Source: Acinetobacter phage Acba_3. Taken from it: DNA of 55,181 nt. Below, piece by piece: positions 6,012 to 32,412 of this stretch; the first letter of the stretch is position 1, and every line of letters begins with the position of its first letter. Location of the stretch: sequence record OQ101248.1. The stretch is one strand, 5' to 3'. Both the position numbers and the translations under genes were made by a program. The notes below the pieces were generated by a model. It saw only the letters and a list, made by a program, of their open reading frames with translations. It ran no database searches and was not told where the DNA came from.

Positions 6012-6296
6012 ATGAGCGACATTGAAACGGTAGGCTGGACGGCAGATAAGCGGTTTTTCATATTAAAAATTAATATGGAAACGAGTTTGACTACAGATGA
6101 TTGTGAGGTTTTAGCAGGATTGTTTGTTGAAAAATATAGTCTGGAATTTTCAGGCTGCCAGTTTCATGGAAAGCTCGCAGTGATATGTGGAGATAAAGTT
6201 TACGTGAATCCTTGGGCGCTTGATCAAGAAGCAAGTGTAGATGAACCAGTTGAGGAACTGTCATTTAGTGAGTTCCAAACGTTATTGAATAATTAA
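6012..6296 (+). CDS. Hypothetical protein
   Basis: ORF. Confidence 0.4.
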   Translation: MSDIETVGWTADKRFFILKINMETSLTTDDCEVLAGLFVEKYSLEFSGCQFHGKLAVICGDKVYVNPWALDQEASVDEPVEELSFSEFQTLLNN

Positions 6297-16398: not shown

Positions 16399-17355
16399 AT
16401 GACTACAACAGTTAATTCAGACATGATCATCTACAACCAATTGGCTCAAACTGCTTATTTAGAGCGTTTGCAAGACAATTTGAACGTATTTAACCAGGCC
16501 TCTAATGGTGCAATTGTATATCGCAATGAGATTATTGAAGGTGATTTCAATAAAGAGGCATTTTACAAAGTGGGCGGTAGCATCAAGCATCGTGATGTGA
16601 ATTCAACCGCCAAAGTAGTGCCTGAGAAGATTGGGTCTGGTGAATCTGTAGGCGTAAAAGTCCCATATAAATATGGTCCTTATGCTTCAACCGAAGAGGC
16701 ATTCAAACGCCGTGCACGCACACCTGAAGAGTTTGCCATGATTCTTGGTTATGATTTAGCAGATGCATTAGTTGCAGGACGTTTACAGTACAGTTTAGCC
16801 TCCTTAAAAGCAGCTATTTCTAGCAACCCGGATATGGTTGCCAAAGGCAGTATTGCTGTAGATGGGCGTAAAGCATTAACACGTGGTATGCGTAAGTTTG
16901 GCGATAAGTTTGGACGTATTAGTTTATGGGTAATGAACTCAGATACTTATTTCGATATTGTCGATGATGCAATCACTAATCAAATTTATGGCGAATCTGA
17001 AATCGTTATCTATGGTGGTTTACCGGGTACCTTAGGTAAGCCGGTATTGGTTACAGATGCCGTAGGTGATGATGATGCATTTGGTTTGCAAATGGGTGCA
17101 GTTACTGTTACAGAATCACAAGTACCAGGCTTCCGCGCGTATGACATCAATGATGAAGAAAACTTGGCAATCGGTATGCGTGCTGAGGGTACATTTAACC
17201 TAGATATTCTTGGTTATAGCTGGGATACATCAAAAGGTGAAAACCCTGACCTTACTTTACTTGGTTCAAGTGCCAACTGGAAAAAACATGCTACTAGCAA
17301 CAAAATGACAGCAGGCACATTGCTTGATCTATCTGGCACAACAACAACTGGTTAA
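16399..17355 (+). CDS. Major capsid protein
   Basis: 318 aa; position after scaffold, strong GGAG RBS, followed by terminator (high expression unit). Confidence 0.65.
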   Translation: MTTTVNSDMIIYNQLAQTAYLERLQDNLNVFNQASNGAIVYRNEIIEGDFNKEAFYKVGGSIKHRDVNSTAKVVPEKIGSGESVGVKVPYKYGPYASTEEAFKRRARTPEEFAMILGYDLADALVAGRLQYSLASLKAAISSNPDMVAKGSIAVDGRKALTRGMRKFGDKFGRISLWVMNSDTYFDIVDDAITNQIYGESEIVIYGGLPGTLGKPVLVTDAVGDDDAFGLQMGAVTVTESQVPGFRAYDINDEENLAIGMRAEGTFNLDILGYSWDTSKGENPDLTLLGSSANWKKHATSNKMTAGTLLDLSGTTTTG

Positions 17356-17375
17356 CTCATAAACATCTCACTATA

Positions 17376-17400
17376 AGAGGGCTATTAAGCCCTCTTTTTA
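17376..17400 (+). terminator. Rho-independent terminator
   Basis: agagggc-tattaa-gccctct then TTTTA. Confidence 0.55.
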
Positions 17401-17419
17401 CATTTAAGAGAAATGCATC

Positions 17420-18085
17420 ATGAAGCTAATTTATACACGTATTGCTGCTGCAGCTGCGTTAGAGGTTGGAACTATTGCCAATCCTGATTATTACGAACAT
17501 CCGAATCGAAGTGCTGAAGAAGTAATTATTTACGGTGATTACCCGAAAATCCAAAATGATTACCAAGCTCTGGATATTCCTGTTGAAGTTCGCAAATTGG
17601 AAGAGCCTGCAAAAACGACATTGGCCACTGTAAATGTAGCGGTTGGAATTACTCCAGAGCTGCAAGAAGTTATTGATAAAACTAAAGCTGAGTGTGAAAA
17701 GGTTGTTGAGGAAAACGGGCAACTTAAACAGAAAATCGAAATCTTGGAACAAGCTAGTGGTGATAGTTCGGAGTTAATTTCTGAAAACTCACGTTTAAAA
17801 GATGCTGTACTCCAAGCTGACAATGCTACTAAAGCGGCTGAAGAAAAGGTAGTAAGCATTCAAGCAGAGTTTGATGCTTTTAAAAATGATGTTGCTGCTA
17901 TGCAAGCGCGTATTGCTGAATTGGAAGCTGGAAAAGCGGCAGAAAATTCAGCAACAGAAACGGCAGCTAATGATTTTGAAAACTGGTCAAATGATCAATT
18001 AAAAGAGTATTTGGCTAGTAAAAACATTGGTTACAAACCGTCTGCAACAAAAGCAGAACTCCTTAAATTAATCCCGAAGGAATAA
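17420..18085 (+). CDS. Coiled-coil protein with C-terminal SAP/HeH-like motif (possible head decoration/structural)
   Basis: Central heptad-rich segment; C-terminal SNDQLKEYLASKNIGYKPSATKAELLKLI resembles SAP/HeH DNA-binding motif. Confidence 0.4.
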   Translation: MKLIYTRIAAAAALEVGTIANPDYYEHPNRSAEEVIIYGDYPKIQNDYQALDIPVEVRKLEEPAKTTLATVNVAVGITPELQEVIDKTKAECEKVVEENGQLKQKIEILEQASGDSSELISENSRLKDAVLQADNATKAAEEKVVSIQAEFDAFKNDVAAMQARIAELEAGKAAENSATETAANDFENWSNDQLKEYLASKNIGYKPSATKAELLKLIPKE

Positions 18086-20323: not shown

Positions 20324-21253
20324 ATGTCGAGTGGTGCACGTCAGATAACACAAATCGCGAAGGAAACCACTGTTGGTACCACACCTTCACCCTTCGCACG
20401 TACGACCTTTGAATTTACTGAAAATGGCCTTGATGCGACAGTAACAAAGGAAGACTCTAACTCAATCACAAGTGGCCGTATTGCACGTTCATCAATGATT
20501 ACCGGTGCAGAGTATGCCGGTGAATTAAAATGTGAAGCGAAGTACAGTTCATTAGTTCAAGACTTAATGGCTGCAGCTGCTTTTAATAACTGGTCGTCAA
20601 ATGTATTAACTTTTGGTGGCACACTTCGTCAAACATTTTCTGTTTTACGTGGCTTTGAAGATGTTAATGACTACCATGTTTTCCGTGGATGTCATGTAAA
20701 CACTTTTGGAATTGATATTCCTGAAGCTGGCTTAATTACAATGACTTTCGGCCTTATGGCTCTTGGTCGTACAAACTTTTCTTCAGCACCGGCTGGAACA
20801 ATTACAGCGGCAGATAACAATCCTAAAATGTCGAATGTCTCTGTAGGTGACATTTTAATTGACGGCGTTTCTCAAGCTGGGATTTCATGCTTGACCGCTT
20901 TTACATTTAATTGGGATAACACTATGCAGCTACAACGCTGTTTAGGTGGTGGTATTGATGCACGTGCAATCCTAGAAATGCTTGCAACAGGTACAGGTTC
21001 ATTTACCGCAGCTTGGTCACGCAATACATCCGATATGTATGAAAAGCAATTCACTAACAAAACGATTTCATTAAAAGTTCCAATCACTGATACAGATGGG
21101 AATAAATATGAAATTTTTATTCCTAAAGCTGAAATTACTGCCCCATGGCCTAGTGGTGGTAATTCAGATCTTTTAAATGCTTCATTCGAATATAAAGTCG
21201 TAGAAGTAGCCCCAACCATCACTCGTACACCAGCAGCAGTTCCTGCGTCTTAA
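20324..21253 (+). CDS. Major tail protein
   Basis: 309 aa, GGAG RBS, flanked by terminators, located before chaperone/tape-measure genes. Confidence 0.65.
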   Translation: MSSGARQITQIAKETTVGTTPSPFARTTFEFTENGLDATVTKEDSNSITSGRIARSSMITGAEYAGELKCEAKYSSLVQDLMAAAAFNNWSSNVLTFGGTLRQTFSVLRGFEDVNDYHVFRGCHVNTFGIDIPEAGLITMTFGLMALGRTNFSSAPAGTITAADNNPKMSNVSVGDILIDGVSQAGISCLTAFTFNWDNTMQLQRCLGGGIDARAILEMLATGTGSFTAAWSRNTSDMYEKQFTNKTISLKVPITDTDGNKYEIFIPKAEITAPWPSGGNSDLLNASFEYKVVEVAPTITRTPAAVPAS

Positions 21254-21831: not shown

Positions 21832-22085
21832 ATTTAAAAATAGCTGAAACCATCCAAAAGCCTGAATACTCATTTACAGCCAATGCCATTCTTTCAGCAT
21901 ATAACGTAATTTCCCGTTCAAGGCGTTATGAGCAAGGCATTCCCTTGGCTTTGGATATTGCAGCTATATCTGCCTATTGTGATCATTATGAGATCCCAGT
22001 CGAAAGAGATATTTTTAACGACTGTATTTTTGCATTGGATAATTTGTTTTTGGATGAGGTGCATAAGAAAGCGAGTAAAAAATAG
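21735..22085 (+). CDS. Predicted -1 frameshift extension (lambda gpT-like) producing a G-T-like fusion
   Basis: 117 stop-free codons in the -1 frame from heptamer G_GGA_AAG (identical to the lambda G/T site) to TAG 22083-22085; frame contains no ATG, so accessible only by frameshifting. Confidence 0.55.
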   Translation, partial: GKVINLYNWTKFNSEEEASDYNKKQTAIAKALNLKIAETIQKPEYSFTANAILSAYNVISRSRRYEQGIPLALDIAAISAYCDHYEIPVERDIFNDCIFALDNLFLDEVHKKASKK

Positions 22086-22273
22086 AAATCTATATTGCAT
22101 TTGGCAAAAATCAAAGATAAATTGATGTCTCATACTTCTCACTCTTGACTGTATTTTTGCATTGGATAATTTGTTTTTGGATGAGGTGCATAAGAAAGCG
22201 AGTAAAAAATAGAAATCTATATTGCATTTGGCAAAAATCAAAGATAAATTGATGTCTCATACTTCTCACTCTT
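22020..22273. repeat. Perfect 127-bp tandem duplication (22020-22146 and 22147-22273)
   Basis: Identical copies; each carries the 3' end of the -1 frame T-like ORF plus a TTGCAT-N17-TAAATT promoter. Confidence 0.9.
22095..22123 (+). promoter_or_regulatory. Sigma70-like promoter TTGCAT-N17-TAAATT (second identical copy at 22222-22250)
   Basis: -35 22095-22100, 17-nt spacer, -10 22118-22123. Confidence 0.45.
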
Positions 22274-25388: not shown

Positions 25389-25448
25389 TTAAGACTCGAT
25401 TTATTGCCGCCGCTTAAGGTGGTTTTTTATTGCCTGAAGGAAAGTCAA

Positions 25449-28400
25449 ATGGCTCAAGAAGCTCGCTTAGTAATTGTTATTGATTCGGAACGTGCGAAAC
25501 GCACTGCACAAGACTTATCAGTTGAATTGGATAGCATCACCAAAAAAGGGGATTTCGCCTCGAAATCTATGGACCGGATGTCTGTAGCAACTCGTGCACT
25601 AGCAGGGTATATGGCTGGTTTATTAACAGTAGGTTCAGCCATTTCAAAGATGGATACATATACTGGACTACAAAACCGCCTTAAGTTGGTCACTAATAAT
25701 CAAGTTGAACTAAATAAAGCTACGGAAGACACTTTCCGAATTGCTCAAAAAACCTATTCAGCATGGGATTCTGTTCTACAGGTCTACCAGCGTTTTAGTG
25801 ATAATGCCAAAACTTTAAACCTCACAATGGATGACACAGCACGTTTAACTGAAACAGTTTCTAAAGCTGTAGCAATTAGTGGTGCAAGTGCAGAAGCTGC
25901 TGATGCAGCTTTAGTTCAGTTCGGGCAGGCCTTGGCTAGTGGAACGTTGCGTGGAGAAGAACTTAATTCTGTAATGGAGCAAACCCCAGCACTAGCAAAG
26001 GCTATTGCTAAAGGTATGGGTATTACTGTAGGTGAATTACGTTCAGTAGCAGCTGAAGGAAAAATTACTTCACAAGAAATTGTAAAAGCGCTTAGAAATG
26101 TAGAATCTGATGTTGATGCTCTTTTTGCTAAAACAGATATCACAATCGAGCAGTCTCTCACACTCCTAAACAACGAGATCACAAAATTTGTTGGCGAAGC
26201 AGGTAAGGGAAGTGGTGCGGCACAGGTATTAGCTGGATCAGTTCAAACTCTTGCAAGTAATTTAGATTTAATTGCTGATGGGGCTTTAGTAGTTGGTATT
26301 GGATATATCACTCGTGCAATTTTGATGAAGAGCGCTGCTATTAAAGAGGGAATGGCTTCAACTTTAGCGAGCCGCCAAGCATCTGTATTAAATGCTCAAG
26401 CAGAATATGCAGAAGCTACCGCTGCTTTGAATGCAGCAAAAGCTCATCTCGCGAATGTGCGAGCAACAAATGCAGAAACCCAAGCTAAATTTGGCGCAAC
26501 AGCGGCAGCAACTCGATACGCACAAGCACAGGCAGCAGTAACTGCTGCTACAAATGCACAAACAGCAGCTCAAATTAAGCTAAATACTGCAACTTCAATT
26601 GCAGGGAGACTAGCTAAAGGGGCGTTTGGATTAATTGGTGGGTGGGCTGGAGTTGCAACATTAGGAGTAATGGGATTAGCGGCAGCCTATTCTTATTTTA
26701 ATAATAAGGCAGAGGGGGCAAAGCAAAAGCTTGCTGAACAAGCTAAAGTTGCTGAGAAAGCTGATGAGGAGTTAAAAAAATTAACTGGCAATGATAAGGC
26801 TAAAGCAGTTAATGATTTAACTACTGCTTTTAATGCACAAAATAAAGCATTAGAGAAATCATCGCGTGCTGTAGGGTCTGCATTAATTGATATCGAGAAC
26901 TATGCACGAGGAAATAGGGAGGTTGAAAAAATTTCCCAAGAAGCGAGAACTGGAACTATCAGCTATACAGAAGCCATTGAACGTCTAAATAAAATTAAGT
27001 TGCCTACAGATCTATATGAAAATCTGAAAAAACAGGCTGCGCAGTATGATGACAATGCATCTAAAGCAAGTTTATCAGCTGAGAAACTTAAATTATTAAG
27101 AGTTGAAGTGAAACTTGGAGGTAATGAAGCACAAAATGCGGCAATTCAGCATCAAAAACAAGCGGATGCTTTAGGAAATACTGCTACTGAAGCAGAAAAG
27201 GCAACTAAGGCTTTGCAAGATTATCAAGCCAAGCAAAAAGATAGCGTTATTGATTCAATCTATAAATCAGGTTGGCTTGATAAAGGTTACACTGTTGCTC
27301 AAGCTAATGCCATTTTAGAACTGCAAAAAGCTAAAGGAATGAGTGCAATTTTGTCTAAAGATGAAATTGATAGCGCACTTAGAAATCTCAAGATCATCGA
27401 AGAACAACAGGAGCGAGAAGATAAATTAACTGAAGCTAAAAGAAAGCAGACGCAGGAAATTGAAAAACAAGCAAAACTTACTAAACGCTTGGTCGGTATT
27501 TCCGGTCAATCCGGTATTGGTACTGGTCCACATCTTGACGTCCGATATGGTGGCTCATTGTCAGGTCAGAAAGTTTCTAATGAACATCTGGCTCGATTAC
27601 AGGCGGGAGGAAAACCTTTAACTTCCTACAAGATCAGTTCTAATTATGGTCCACGAAAAGCCCCAACTAAAGGGGCTTCTTCATTTCATAAAGGTATTGA
27701 TTTTTCAATGCCTGAAGGAACACCAATCACGACCAATGTTGCTGTGAAAGATATCAAGACATGGTATGACAGCAAGGGAGGTGGTTATGTCAGTGAAGTG
27801 ATCTTTGAGGATGGAGTGTCTCTTAAGCTTCTACATCAATCTCCCAAGATGCAGAGCAAGGTGAAAGGTGGTGCAAGTAAAGGAAGTGATAAAGCAGCTG
27901 GTGATATTCAATCTCAACTTGAACGTCAACAGGATTTGCAACGGTCACTTGAAAATGAGGTGGCTAGTGAAGTCGGACGGATTAACAATAATAGAAAGGC
28001 AAGACTGGAGGATGTTGATAAAGCAAACTTTAGCCCGGAACGTACTGCAGAAATAAAGGCGGAAATAAATCGTCGTGCAGATAATGATATTGCTATAGCC
28101 AAACAAGCCCTTAGAACGAAATTGGAAGACTATAAGGAGTTCCAGAAAACCGAGGAACAGTTACTAGAAGAGTCCTTTAACCGTAAAAAGTTCAATGCAG
28201 CTCATGACCTTGAATTAAGTAAGTTTGAGCAGAAGCAAGCTGTTGAATTGCTGGAACAGCAAAAACAGCAAGAGTTAGGGTTATTAAAACTAGCTCAGGA
28301 ACAGCGGTTGTTTCAAGCCCGTTTATCTCTGCTTTCTGAAACGCAAGCCATGCAGGAACGTTACAGACTCGAACGGGAGGAAATTCTTAAGAATACCAAG

Positions 28401-29423
28401 CTTTCTATAGAAGAGCGGCAAAAGCTAATCGCATTATCTAAAGCCAATCAGGATAAAGAGACACGCGATAAAGTGAATAATGCTGTTCAAAACTGGGGTG
28501 GTATTCAGGCGAGTATCACTGGTAATAGTGGTCAATTCGCTTTAGAACAGGAGCGCTTTCGCCGTTATGATGCTTCTCAAAAAGTATTTGATAGCCAGCT
28601 TGCTGATATTGAAACTCAGGAACAAGATCCAAATGCAAATATGGTAGCTCTAAATGCACAACGTGAACAAATCATGAAGGAGCACTTTGAGCGTTTGAAA
28701 TTGATTGAATCTACTTATCAAAATGATTCAATGAATCTCCAGTTGGGTTATGGAGCTAGTGTCACAGGGGCATTGGCTGGCATGTTTAAAAATATGCTTG
28801 GTGAGTCATCAAGTGCTTATCACGTTCTTTATGAAAGTCAACGTGCATTCGCATTGGCGCAGGCTGGAATGAACATGTGGAAAGCTGCTTCAGATGCTTA
28901 CGCAAATGAGCCAGGTACTTGGTACCAAAAAGCGGCAGCAGCAGCGATCGCGACAATTAAATCAGGTACATTTGTATCTCTCATCCAAGCTGCAACCCCG
29001 CAAGGATTTGCGGATGGTGGTTATACAGGTAACGGCCTAAAACACACTCCAGCAGGGATTGTGCATAAAGGCGAAGTCGTATGGTCGCAAGAAGATATCA
29101 AACGCTGGGGTGGTGTTAGCGTTGTTGAAAGTATGCGTCAAAGCAATCCAAGTGGTTATGCGAACGGAGGTTACGTTTCTAATAATCAGTCTGATGCTAT
29201 TGCAATACGTAGAGAGTCTAGACAGTTTGAGGCAATCAACTCTAATCAATCTCAATTGAATACGAACGAAAAGCCAATAAATGTGTATGTCACTGTTAAT
29301 GCCGATGGCACAAGTAAAACAGAGACAGAAAACGACTCAAAACAATTGGGCCAAATGATTGGTAATGCAGTAAGAACTATTATTCGCCAGGAACAAAGAC
29401 AAGGTGGTTTGTTATCTAAGTAA
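25449..29423 (+). CDS. Tail tape measure protein with embedded M23 (LytM-like) peptidase domain
   Basis: 1325 aa, Ala/Gln-rich helical repeats; M23 signature GPRKAPTKGASSFHKGIDFSMPEGTPI (aa ~740-770); ATG 25449 chosen because ATG 25404 overlaps an upstream terminator-like hairpin. Confidence 0.85.
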   Translation: MAQEARLVIVIDSERAKRTAQDLSVELDSITKKGDFASKSMDRMSVATRALAGYMAGLLTVGSAISKMDTYTGLQNRLKLVTNNQVELNKATEDTFRIAQKTYSAWDSVLQVYQRFSDNAKTLNLTMDDTARLTETVSKAVAISGASAEAADAALVQFGQALASGTLRGEELNSVMEQTPALAKAIAKGMGITVGELRSVAAEGKITSQEIVKALRNVESDVDALFAKTDITIEQSLTLLNNEITKFVGEAGKGSGAAQVLAGSVQTLASNLDLIADGALVVGIGYITRAILMKSAAIKEGMASTLASRQASVLNAQAEYAEATAALNAAKAHLANVRATNAETQAKFGATAAATRYAQAQAAVTAATNAQTAAQIKLNTATSIAGRLAKGAFGLIGGWAGVATLGVMGLAAAYSYFNNKAEGAKQKLAEQAKVAEKADEELKKLTGNDKAKAVNDLTTAFNAQNKALEKSSRAVGSALIDIENYARGNREVEKISQEARTGTISYTEAIERLNKIKLPTDLYENLKKQAAQYDDNASKASLSAEKLKLLRVEVKLGGNEAQNAAIQHQKQADALGNTATEAEKATKALQDYQAKQKDSVIDSIYKSGWLDKGYTVAQANAILELQKAKGMSAILSKDEIDSALRNLKIIEEQQEREDKLTEAKRKQTQEIEKQAKLTKRLVGISGQSGIGTGPHLDVRYGGSLSGQKVSNEHLARLQAGGKPLTSYKISSNYGPRKAPTKGASSFHKGIDFSMPEGTPITTNVAVKDIKTWYDSKGGGYVSEVIFEDGVSLKLLHQSPKMQSKVKGGASKGSDKAAGDIQSQLERQQDLQRSLENEVASEVGRINNNRKARLEDVDKANFSPERTAEIKAEINRRADNDIAIAKQALRTKLEDYKEFQKTEEQLLEESFNRKKFNAAHDLELSKFEQKQAVELLEQQKQQELGLLKLAQEQRLFQARLSLLSETQAMQERYRLEREEILKNTKLSIEERQKLIALSKANQDKETRDKVNNAVQNWGGIQASITGNSGQFALEQERFRRYDASQKVFDSQLADIETQEQDPNANMVALNAQREQIMKEHFERLKLIESTYQNDSMNLQLGYGASVTGALAGMFKNMLGESSSAYHVLYESQRAFALAQAGMNMWKAASDAYANEPGTWYQKAAAAAIATIKSGTFVSLIQAATPQGFADGGYTGNGLKHTPAGIVHKGEVVWSQEDIKRWGGVSVVESMRQSNPSGYANGGYVSNNQSDAIAIRRESRQFEAINSNQSQLNTNEKPINVYVTVNADGTSKTETENDSKQLGQMIGNAVRTIIRQEQRQGGLLSK

Positions 29424-29502
29424 CGCCTGAACTGTTTCCACTTTTCCGTTAATTGGGGTATAGTTTAATTAATATGGTCATACTTTAGTTATGGTCCTTA
29501 AA

Positions 29503-29528
29503 AGCTCGCTTATTGCGGGCTTTTTTTG
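29503..29528 (+). terminator. Rho-independent terminator
   Basis: gctcgc-ttatt-gcgggc then T7. Confidence 0.5.
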
Positions 29529-29540
29529 TGAGAAATAATC

Positions 29541-29882
29541 ATGAGTGACTTAAAATTTACCTTTGAGTGTGATCTTGAAGGTAATAATCAAACCCAACGT
29601 TTTAATACGTTATCAACAAAATTTGGTGACGGATATGAACAAAATACTTCAATTGGTATAAACAATCGATCTGGTGAATGGACCTATCAGCGCACAGCTA
29701 AGAAAGCTGAAATTTTGGAAATTAAAGCATTCTTTGATAAGCACAAGGGTGCTAATTCTTTTCTATGGGATTCGCCGTTAGATGGTGAAGTGCGCGTTAA
29801 AGCAGGGGATTATCAACCTGTTTGCTTGGGTGGAGATACGTGGCGCATTACAACCACATTTACTCAAGTTTTCTATCCATAA
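29541..29882 (+). CDS. Minor tail protein, lambda gpM-like
   Basis: 113 aa directly after tape measure, matching lambda M (109 aa) in size and position within an M-L-K-I-J order. Confidence 0.55.
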   Translation: MSDLKFTFECDLEGNNQTQRFNTLSTKFGDGYEQNTSIGINNRSGEWTYQRTAKKAEILEIKAFFDKHKGANSFLWDSPLDGEVRVKAGDYQPVCLGGDTWRITTTFTQVFYP

Positions 29883-29896
29883 TTTTTTCTCAACGG

Positions 29897-29917
29897 CTCC
29901 TTAAGGAGCTTTTTTAT
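29897..29917 (+). terminator. Rho-independent terminator
   Basis: gctcc-ttaa-ggagc then T6. Confidence 0.55.
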
Positions 29918-29936
29918 TGCTTATTGGAGCAGAAAC

Positions 29937-30287
29937 ATGGCTATTAAAACTTTAGATCTTGCTGAAGCATATATTGTCGGTGAATTACGCACTCAATTAT
30001 TAGATGCACGTAGTTTCGGGAATAATTTGCCTGCTGGCAGAATTGAAACTTTAGCGATTAATTATGATCGACCTTCTGATTCAGTGAATATTGCTGTTAC
30101 ACCAGGTGGTGGTTTAAACGGAAGTATGACTTTACTTGATGCTGACATCACAAAGTGGGCAATTCAAACGATCTTAAACACAGCTTATCTCTATCAGGTA
30201 GATGTAAACACTTTAAGCCTTAAATATGACTTGGCTGCTAAAAAAATTACTATTGAATATACTCCAGTTGTTTCAGGTCAAGCTTAA
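29937..30287 (+). CDS. Hypothetical tail protein
   Basis: 116 aa ORF between M-like and L-like genes. Confidence 0.4.
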   Translation: MAIKTLDLAEAYIVGELRTQLLDARSFGNNLPAGRIETLAINYDRPSDSVNIAVTPGGGLNGSMTLLDADITKWAIQTILNTAYLYQVDVNTLSLKYDLAAKKITIEYTPVVSGQA

Positions 30288-30296
30288 GGAGGTCTC

Positions 30297-30995
30297 ATGA
30301 CTTTACAAAGTGACTTCCAGAAACTTGAACCAGGTGGATTAATTCACCTGTATGAATTAGATGCCAGCTCGTATGGAGTTGGCATTCTTCGATTTCATGG
30401 CCATCAGCAAATGTAAAGTATTTTTTGGCAGGGTCAGGAGTTTGAAGCTATTAGTCTGGATGTCTCTGGTTTAGAAATGAGATCAGATGGTAAGGCTTCG
30501 GCTCCCACATTAACAATCGCCAATAACCTGAACGGAATACAAGGTGCAATTTCAGCTTACTGTCTCCAATGTAAAGATTTCGTTGGAGCTAAACTCAAAG
30601 TTATAACCACACTCACCAAGTATCTTGATGCCAAGAACTTTCCTGAAGGCAATCCAACAGCATCAAATGAATCAAAAGAGCAGATTTGGTATATCGAGCA
30701 GAAAACATCTGAAAATGCTCAACAAGTAACTTTTGAGCTTTCAAACCCGATTGATTTTGAGGGGTTGAGAATACCAGTTCGTCAAATTACTTCATTGTGC
30801 CATTGGTGCACGATGGGGAAATATCGTGGTGAAGAATGTGGTTATACCGGCGCTGCTATGTTTACAGAAAAGGATGAGCCAACTGATAACCCTGCATTAG
30901 ATCGATGTGGAGGAAGGTTGCGCTCTTGCCGATTACGCTTTGGAGAAAACAAGCCCCTTCCTTTTGGAGGATTCCCAGCATCAAGCTTAGTTTGA
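30297..30995 (+). pseudogene. Lambda gpL-like minor tail protein interrupted by an in-frame TAA (30414-30416); intact 3' segment corresponds to ORF 30477-30995
   Basis: AAGGAGG RBS then ATG 30297; 39 codons, TAA, then same frame continues SIFWQGQEFEAISLDVSGLEMRSDGKASAPTLTIANNL...; C-terminal YRGEECGY...C..C..C cluster and 232-codon total length match lambda L; N-terminal segment aligns with lambda L across the stop. Confidence 0.6.
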
Positions 30996-31001
30996 GGTCC
31001 T

Positions 31002-31757
31002 ATGAAACTAACAGCAAAAATCAAAAAAGCGGTAATGGCCCATGCTGATGAATGCTATCCGCATGAATGCTGTGGGGTCATTGTAGACAAGGAATATATC
31101 CCTTGTCGAAATGTAGCAAACAAATCAGATCAGTTTGAAATACATCCTGAAGACTTAGCTTTTGCAGAAGACCAGGGCGAGATATTAGCGTATGTGCATT
31201 CCCACCCTGACGGAACTACAAGAGCCTCAGAACTAGACTTAATTCAAATTGAGTTACATCAAAAGCCTTGGGTAATTTGTTCCTATCCGGATCTAGATTT
31301 TCAAATATATGAACCATGTGGTTATCGCGCCCCTTTAGTGGGGCGTAATTATTTTCACGGTTGGCAGGATTGCTACGCTCTTATACGCGATTTTTATAGT
31401 CGTGAATTAGGAGTCGAACTTATGGATTTCGAGCGTAAAGATGCTTGGTGGGAAGATAAAGATCATCCATCACTTTATCTTGAGAATTATGAGAAAGCAG
31501 GCTTCTATGAAGTAGATACGCCGCAATATGGCGATATGCTTGTTTGTCGTGTTGGGCGTACTGAACATCCCAATCATGCGGTTGTTTGGCTTGGGGATAA
31601 TGGGCAGCTTAAATCGGAACAAACTGAGCAATGCATAGGTTCAAGTCTAATTCTTCATCATCCATATAATCGTAAATCTGTTCGTGAAATTTATGGCCAA
31701 CAATGGCAAGAGCGAACAGTAAAGATATTGAGGCATCGAGATGTTAAAAACCATTAA
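31002..31757 (+). CDS. Tail assembly protein, lambda gpK-like (JAB/MPN + NlpC/P60 domains)
   Basis: MPN/JAMM motif E..HSHPDGTTRASELD; NlpC/P60-type Cys/His segment (GWQDCYALIRDF ... HPNHAVVW). Confidence 0.85.
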   Translation: MKLTAKIKKAVMAHADECYPHECCGVIVDKEYIPCRNVANKSDQFEIHPEDLAFAEDQGEILAYVHSHPDGTTRASELDLIQIELHQKPWVICSYPDLDFQIYEPCGYRAPLVGRNYFHGWQDCYALIRDFYSRELGVELMDFERKDAWWEDKDHPSLYLENYEKAGFYEVDTPQYGDMLVCRVGRTEHPNHAVVWLGDNGQLKSEQTEQCIGSSLILHHPYNRKSVREIYGQQWQERTVKILRHRDVKNH

Positions 31758-32412
31758 ACTGTATGGAGTATTGGGACAAAAGTTTGGCCGTGAATTTAAA
31801 CTTGATGTTTTAAATACACGTGAAGCTATGCGTGCATTAGCAGTACAAGTTGAAGGTTTCGAGCAGTTCATGTTGAAAGCACATGAGCAGGGACTCCAGT
31901 TTGCTGTATTTCTTAAGAGTAAAAATTCAAGCAAAAAGCGTGGAAAGAAAAGCCCATCAATTTATGACCATGAATCAAAACGACTGATTACTGGAGACAA
32001 TATCAGTGAAGACCAGCTTGATATGACTACACAAGCTGAAGTTATTCATGTTGTGCCTAGAGTAGTTGGAGCGGGCGGGGGTGGTGGCCTTCAAACAATT
32101 ATCGGGGCTGTTATGGTAGTTGTAGGGGTGGTTGTAGGGGTGTTTGCTGGATGGACTGGTGTTGGTGCAGTTGTGGCACAAGGGTTAATCGGGGCGGGTA
32201 TCGGCATGATGCTTGGTGGTGTGGCAATGATGCTTATGCCAAAGGTCGATAATACTCAGGACCAAAACCAAGATGGTAATAGGGCAAACCAAGGATTCGG
32301 TGGAGCTGTAACTACGGTTGCCCAAGGGAACCCTGTTCCAGTTTTATATGGCCAACGTGAAGTTGGTGGATTCATTGTGAGTGCTGGTCAGTATCCTGAA
32401 GACCAGATGTAG
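31741..32412 (+). CDS. Tail assembly protein, lambda gpI-like
   Basis: 223 aa (same length as lambda I), N-terminal ubiquitin-like segment and Gly-rich hydrophobic C-terminal region; overlaps K-like gene. Confidence 0.7.
   Translation: MLKTIKLYGVLGQKFGREFKLDVLNTREAMRALAVQVEGFEQFMLKAHEQGLQFAVFLKSKNSSKKRGKKSPSIYDHESKRLITGDNISEDQLDMTTQAEVIHVVPRVVGAGGGGGLQTIIGAVMVVVGVVVGVFAGWTGVGAVVAQGLIGAGIGMMLGGVAMMLMPKVDNTQDQNQDGNRANQGFGGAVTTVAQGNPVPVLYGQREVGGFIVSAGQYPEDQM

Follow-up and report, generated by a model that had tools for sequence, protein, structure and literature searches.

The window analysed in this study is the complete 55,181-nt record of Acinetobacter phage Acba_3 (OQ101248.1), and the locus of interest is a tail gene of 232 codons that carries a stop codon within its frame (Table 1). 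A preliminary description had listed the AAGGAGG ribosome-binding site, the ATG at 30297, the TAA and a frame that continues behind it. Each of these elements was recovered from the sequence, and the peptides given for either side of the TAA as well as the C-terminal YRGEECGY motif were also correct. The frame proceeds beyond the TAA without any shift to a TGA at 30993-30995, which gives 232 sense codons and the internal stop. The latter stands in the context UAA-A and cuts L at 17% of its length, leaving an upstream fragment of 39 amino acids.

Table 1. Coordinates of the L gene, its internal stop, neighbouring genes and other features in the Acba_3 window
Feature	Position	Strand	Remarks
127-bp tandem duplication, exact	22020..22273		22020-22146 identical to 22147-22273
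gpM-like distal tail protein gene	29541..29882	+	PF05939, E = 2.6e-23
AAGGAGG, Shine-Dalgarno-like	30286..30292	+	4 nt 5' of the L ATG; read from the sequence
Lambda gpL-type tail-tip hub gene (minor tail protein L)	30297..30995	+	232 codons, interrupted at codon 40
In-frame TAA (codon 40)	30414..30416	+	T at 30414 is a G-to-T change private to the Acba_3 record
172-aa residual ORF	30477..30995	+	Identical to GenBank WCF71491.1, 'minor tail protein L [Acinetobacter phage Acba_3]'
C171, C181, C204 and C211 of L	30807..30929	+	Aligned with Cys173/182/205/212 of lambda gpL
gpK-like gene, JAB and NlpC/P60	31002..31757	+	PF14464, PF00877
gpI-like tail assembly protein gene	31741..32412	+	PF06805
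J-like central tail fibre ORF, 3489 aa	32479-42948		Many repeated Ser/Thr/Asn-rich coiled segments

Family, structure and neighbourhood of the L gene

When the stop was masked, the product of 232 residues matched the Pfam family PF05100 (Phage_tail_L) with 227.5 bits (cut-off 25; E = 1.4e-67). The match is full-length, covering residues 26-231 of L and positions 3-205 of the 206 in the profile, and it spans codon 40, which confirms the L-like identity and the conserved sequence across the stop that had been proposed before. The product furthermore matched phrog_18, 'minor tail protein', with E = 2.8e-112. Its closest solved homologue is the hub protein (BHP) of the F2-pyocin (25vf_7; E = 4e-80; residues 1-232 versus 1-229), and lambda gpL (8iyk_L) was aligned with E = 1.5e-27. 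Because the PF05100 match runs through the stop and the homologues align from residue 1 onward, a chance ORF pattern is ruled out, and the locus is identified by its sequence as a true, interrupted gpL-type gene.

Lambda gpL resembles the Acba_3 protein in its length of 232 amino acids, the four ligand cysteines and the gene order tape measure-M-L-K-I-J. In lambda gpL, residues 1-166 make up the HDI β-sandwich, which joins gpJ in forming the last tail ring, and C173, C182, C205 and C212 ligate a [4Fe-4S] cluster (PMC10721106). With all four ligand cysteines kept, L has a C-terminal domain with a predicted cluster of the same type. At codon 40, however, the two differ: the position pairs with the Glu in 'KGEPVTWQG' of lambda gpL, whereas the Acba_3 record has TAA. 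The F2-pyocin protein matches L from end to end, including the N-terminal 60 residues, but it belongs to a Pseudomonas tailocin and not to a phage, and chain 7 of 25vf has a Gly opposite codon 40. Thus, the residue at codon 40 itself is not conserved.

The neighbouring genes follow the lambda-type tail-tip order of tape measure, M, L, K, I and J. In the sister records, the J-like ORF is annotated as 'putative main tail protein', and near-identical contigs have J-type Pfam domains on record. L can be placed in the lambda gpL/PF05100 family by all features tested other than the intact frame. Unlike lambda, which has no such gene, Acba_3 carries an additional 116-aa ORF (29937-30287) between the M-like and L-like genes. 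This ORF is kept in all sister phages; its sole match was phrog_16763 (unknown function), and it had no match in Pfam.

Codon 40 in related phages

A megablast search with positions 29500-31800 retrieved nine Acinetobacter phages with 99.9-100% identity, namely AM106, phi1_092021 and Acba_4, Acba_11, Acba_13, Acba_14, Acba_15, Acba_16 and Acba_18. Direct alignment revealed GAA (Glu) at codon 40 in all nine, in agreement with the sense codon that had been predicted for the closest relatives. Scanning IMG/VR with a pattern that had N at the variable base returned eight contigs, of which seven read GAA and one read AAA; the same pattern gave zero matches in the genome and metagenome contig collections. 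The TAA allele was accordingly seen in none of the 17 related DNA sequences (nine phages and eight IMG/VR contigs). At least 1000 public contigs encode the exact 232-aa L protein with Glu40. The N-terminal fragment of 39 amino acids was absent from a collection of ~15 billion proteins. Over 2.3 kb around L, the Acba_3 record is identical to its GAA-bearing relatives apart from one base. Judged from these comparisons, the G-to-T change at 30414 is private to the Acba_3 record and occurs nowhere else in the sequences examined.

The alignments also bear on the idea that L naturally consists of two polypeptides, or that it starts at the ATG at 30477 and is preceded by a separate small gene. The GenBank annotation of Acba_3, which gives only the 172-aa ORF, would agree with such an arrangement. 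All nine near-identical phages, however, annotate L as one 699-nt CDS, so that a start of the homologues at 30477, named in the preliminary description as an outcome that would refute its finding, is contradicted by relatives encoding a single 232-aa ORF. In addition, the Pfam and PDB alignments cross codon 40, the latter covering residues 1-60. The ATG at 30477 is the first in-frame ATG, GTG or TTG after the TAA, and no Shine-Dalgarno sequence precedes it; an AGGAG at 30436-30440 stands before an in-frame ATT only. We therefore consider a natural division of L next to impossible.

Translational restart was likewise considered as a route to a functional L protein from the interrupted gene. The 172-aa ORF is devoid of residues 1-60, and since these form part of the conserved HDI β-sandwich domain, restart was rejected.

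The exact 172-aa ORF was found on 24 contigs, i.e., 23 besides the Acba_3 record, which include two long-read chromosomes of A. baumannii and Logan contigs. The inherited truncation that this number suggests was rejected, as all ten contigs listed among the 23 read GAA at codon 40 and are broken instead by a T6-to-T5 deletion at 30421-30426. Each of the contigs with this deletion carries further indels, with 1-21 gap openings per contig. The deletion is probably long-read homopolymer noise and unrelated to the TAA; three of the ten contigs have intact neighbour genes and may represent a real frameshifted prophage allele.

A further proposal was that programmed readthrough or suppression of the UAA, possibly by a suppressor tRNA, tunes the dosage of L. 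It is supported only by the viability of the phage and by the conserved sequence that follows the TAA in the same frame. Against it stand the absence of the stop from all 17 related DNA sequences and the Glu40 codon in the protein on at least 1000 contigs. Moreover, the flanks are identical to those of the GAA-bearing relatives, which argues against a co-evolved readthrough signal. UAA is the least leaky of the bacterial stop codons. An ARAGORN search of the whole 55,181-nt sequence detected no tRNA gene, and none was found by the authors of the genome either (PMC9866556). In summary, neither a conserved stop nor a leaky UGA or UAG, a stimulatory context or a suppressor tRNA was present, and the readthrough proposal was abandoned as very improbable.

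The A1 protein of phage Qβ illustrates what such a device looks like. There, readthrough takes place at a conserved UGA and adds a C-terminal extension to an already functional protein. Acba_3 has no more in common with it than a stop in frame with coding sequence behind it; the Acba_3 stop is a UAA, occurs in a single record and truncates L early. The TAA interruption of L corresponds to no known regulatory device.

Reliability of the Acba_3 record and its sister records

The whole genome of Acba_3 is 99.7-99.9% identical to those of Acba_18, Acba_14, Acba_13 and Aclw_9, and the ends of its record are offset by 14 nt from those of Acba_18. The record thus covers a complete phage genome in circular permutation and does not represent a chromosomal prophage. 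Baginska et al. (2023; PMC9866556) have documented plaques of Acba_3 (their Fig. 1A) and a transmission electron micrograph of a long-tailed virion (their Fig. 2A), and they determined an adsorption constant of 1.2e-9 mL/min. On the strength of these published plaques, virion and adsorption data, we conclude that the Acba_3 stock makes working tail tips. The earlier suggestion that a nonsense mutation turned the phage into a tail-defective, cryptic prophage is thereby only partly sustained: a real nonsense allele is possible, but a cryptic prophage is incompatible with a record that is a complete phage genome and with an isolate that forms plaques and has a tail.

Four independent lines of evidence (the assembly methods, a duplication, the Acba_13 record and the private changes) indicate that the Acba_3 record is not reliable. 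The first line is the assembly procedure. The authors reported 'highly fragmented contigs', and contigs from data subsampled to 6-14x were fed to SPAdes as trusted contigs; contig ends were then fitted to reference phages, and the sequences were submitted as 'partial genomes' (PMC9866556).

The second line is the exact tandem duplication of 127 bp, which is intergenic and follows the tail-assembly-chaperone gene. The unit occurs as a single copy in Acba_18 and Acba_14 and in two copies in Acba_13. For 2x250 reads, 127 is the largest k-mer used by SPAdes, and circular or permuted genomes that come out of this program usually show a terminal overlap of length k. The duplication looks like an untrimmed SPAdes contig-end overlap that was left inside the sequence after rotation; given that it is shared with Acba_13, it could also be real.

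Third, in the record of Acba_13 (OQ101255), likewise a plaque-forming phage, the major capsid gene (16484-17440, corresponding to 16399-17355 in Acba_3 coordinates) is interrupted by an in-frame TAA (Q231*; position 17174, equivalent to 17089 in Acba_3) and is annotated as two CDSs. The same gene carries a VVP-to-GGQ cluster and an Asp-to-Val exchange, all of which are private to the Acba_13 record. A private GGA-to-TGA stop is located in another ORF of Acba_13, at the equivalent of Acba_3 position 6189.

Fourth, we surveyed private changes in the Acba_3 record and eight sister records. Among the private isolated substitutions, 4 were synonymous and 23 changed an amino acid or created a stop; 9 were transitions and 19 transversions (including 9 C>A and 8 T>G). 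Among shared or clustered (mosaic) variants, the corresponding ratios were 47:39 and 60:46. The two classes thus differ both in coding effect (Fisher p = 3e-4) and in spectrum (p = 0.03). For these genes, a model of random substitution predicts 22% synonymous and 4.7% nonsense changes, that is, 1.3 nonsense changes in 27, and two were observed. Isolated private changes, among them the G>T at 30414, therefore appear to behave as unselected noise. Six of them belong to Acba_3 (6425, 6769, 7650, 23608, 30414 and 38533). Four of these six are G>T or C>A, and L is the only gene broken.

Consensus error versus a genuine nonsense allele

Having weighed these data, we propose that the TAA is a consensus base error, a single G-to-T change in the deposited record, and assign this reading a probability of about 0.7. 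We infer that the T at 30414 is an error rather than the true base of the sequenced DNA. Of the options offered in the preliminary description, a sequencing or assembly error is hence the favoured one. It is consistent with an allele private to one record, a likely assembly artefact in that record, private changes that look unselected throughout the series, and a viable phage stock. The locus itself holds an ordinary gpL-type gene, whose product contributes its N-terminal HDI β-sandwich to the last tail ring together with J. The wrong consensus base at 30414 would stem from a low-quality short-read assembly, and the phage that forms the plaques would carry GAA (Glu40) and make the full 232-aa L protein. 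Low-coverage bubbles are normally removed by SPAdes, and for this reason a random error in the consensus requires either the unusual route of subsampling followed by 'trusted contigs' or locally thin coverage.

The main competing explanation is a real E40* ochre mutation, in which the dominant packaged genome of a mixed lysate has a dead L gene. Such a genome could propagate with intact L provided in trans, either by a near-identical phage infecting the same cell or by a prophage resident in the propagation host. Another possibility is that most of the DNA derives from non-infectious particles and that a minority genotype forms the plaques. The T does stand in the deposited consensus. Several related temperate phages seem to be present in the lysates, and titres were low, at 1e7-1e8 PFU/mL (PMC9866556). 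Eleven 'different' isolates, furthermore, share a tail and lysogeny module that is 99.7-99.9% identical. Real mutations of recent origin, or DNA damage, in a population in which L is complemented in trans would likewise be compatible with the transversion bias and the apparent lack of selection, as complemented recent mutations would also look unselected. On the other hand, the allele is present in no other phage, IMG/VR or metagenome contig examined. Together with the missing 39-aa fragment, this leaves E40* without a lineage history. Several lethal alleles dominating separate stocks are less parsimonious than base errors, in view of the capsid stop of Acba_13, and the spectrum is rich in C>A and T>G transversions. 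Artefacts of library preparation or sequencing typically show such a spectrum. Overall, we regard a real E40* allele as rather unlikely. Slightly less probable still is the specific scenario in which the T is the majority base in the plaque-forming stock and the L-ochre allele is kept either by trans-complementation from a near-identical prophage, co-propagating or resident, in a helper-dependent population with a defective majority, or by decoding of UAA. Within this scenario, decoding of UAA in the Acinetobacter host is far less likely than trans-complementation.

Nonsense mutants of lambda tail genes provide the closest formal precedent. The sus, amber and ochre mutants resemble the Acba_3 allele in form only, with an early single-base nonsense change in an essential tail gene. 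In lambda, early nonsense in a tail gene blocks assembly of the tail tip unless it is suppressed or complemented. The lambda mutants were selected and maintained on suppressor hosts, whereas no suppressor is evident for Acba_3, and its L nonsense allele is most likely not real.

The interruption of L represents no new biology. Its significance lies in database hygiene, which is affected by the truncated L of Acba_3, the split capsid gene of Acba_13 and the 127-bp duplications. Owing to these defects, the Acba_* records are unfit for uncritical inference on evolution or therapeutic phages. A genuine stop would make the majority genome sequenced from this candidate stock for phage therapy tail-defective and helper-dependent. 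This would matter for the quality control of phage therapy, again without being new biology.

Additional observations concern the remainder of the tail region. The module common to the eleven nominally distinct isolates measures ~21-23 kb and comprises the tail and lysogeny genes (28266-51389 in the comparison with Acba_4, Acba_11, Acba_13, Acba_14, Acba_15, Acba_16 and Acba_18); these isolates came from different water samples and hosts, and their early regions differ. The tail tube protein gene (20324-21253) shows a double substitution private to this record (TA to GG at 21147-21148), which turns Leu275 into Trp and could be either a real change or another base-calling artefact. Within the tape-measure gene (25404-29423), a block of ~800 bp (27467-28266) aligned with no sister record in megablast searches. 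On both sides (27449-27463 and 28268-28343), differences are dense and for the most part synonymous, and the block looks like a recombination mosaic specific to Acba_3.
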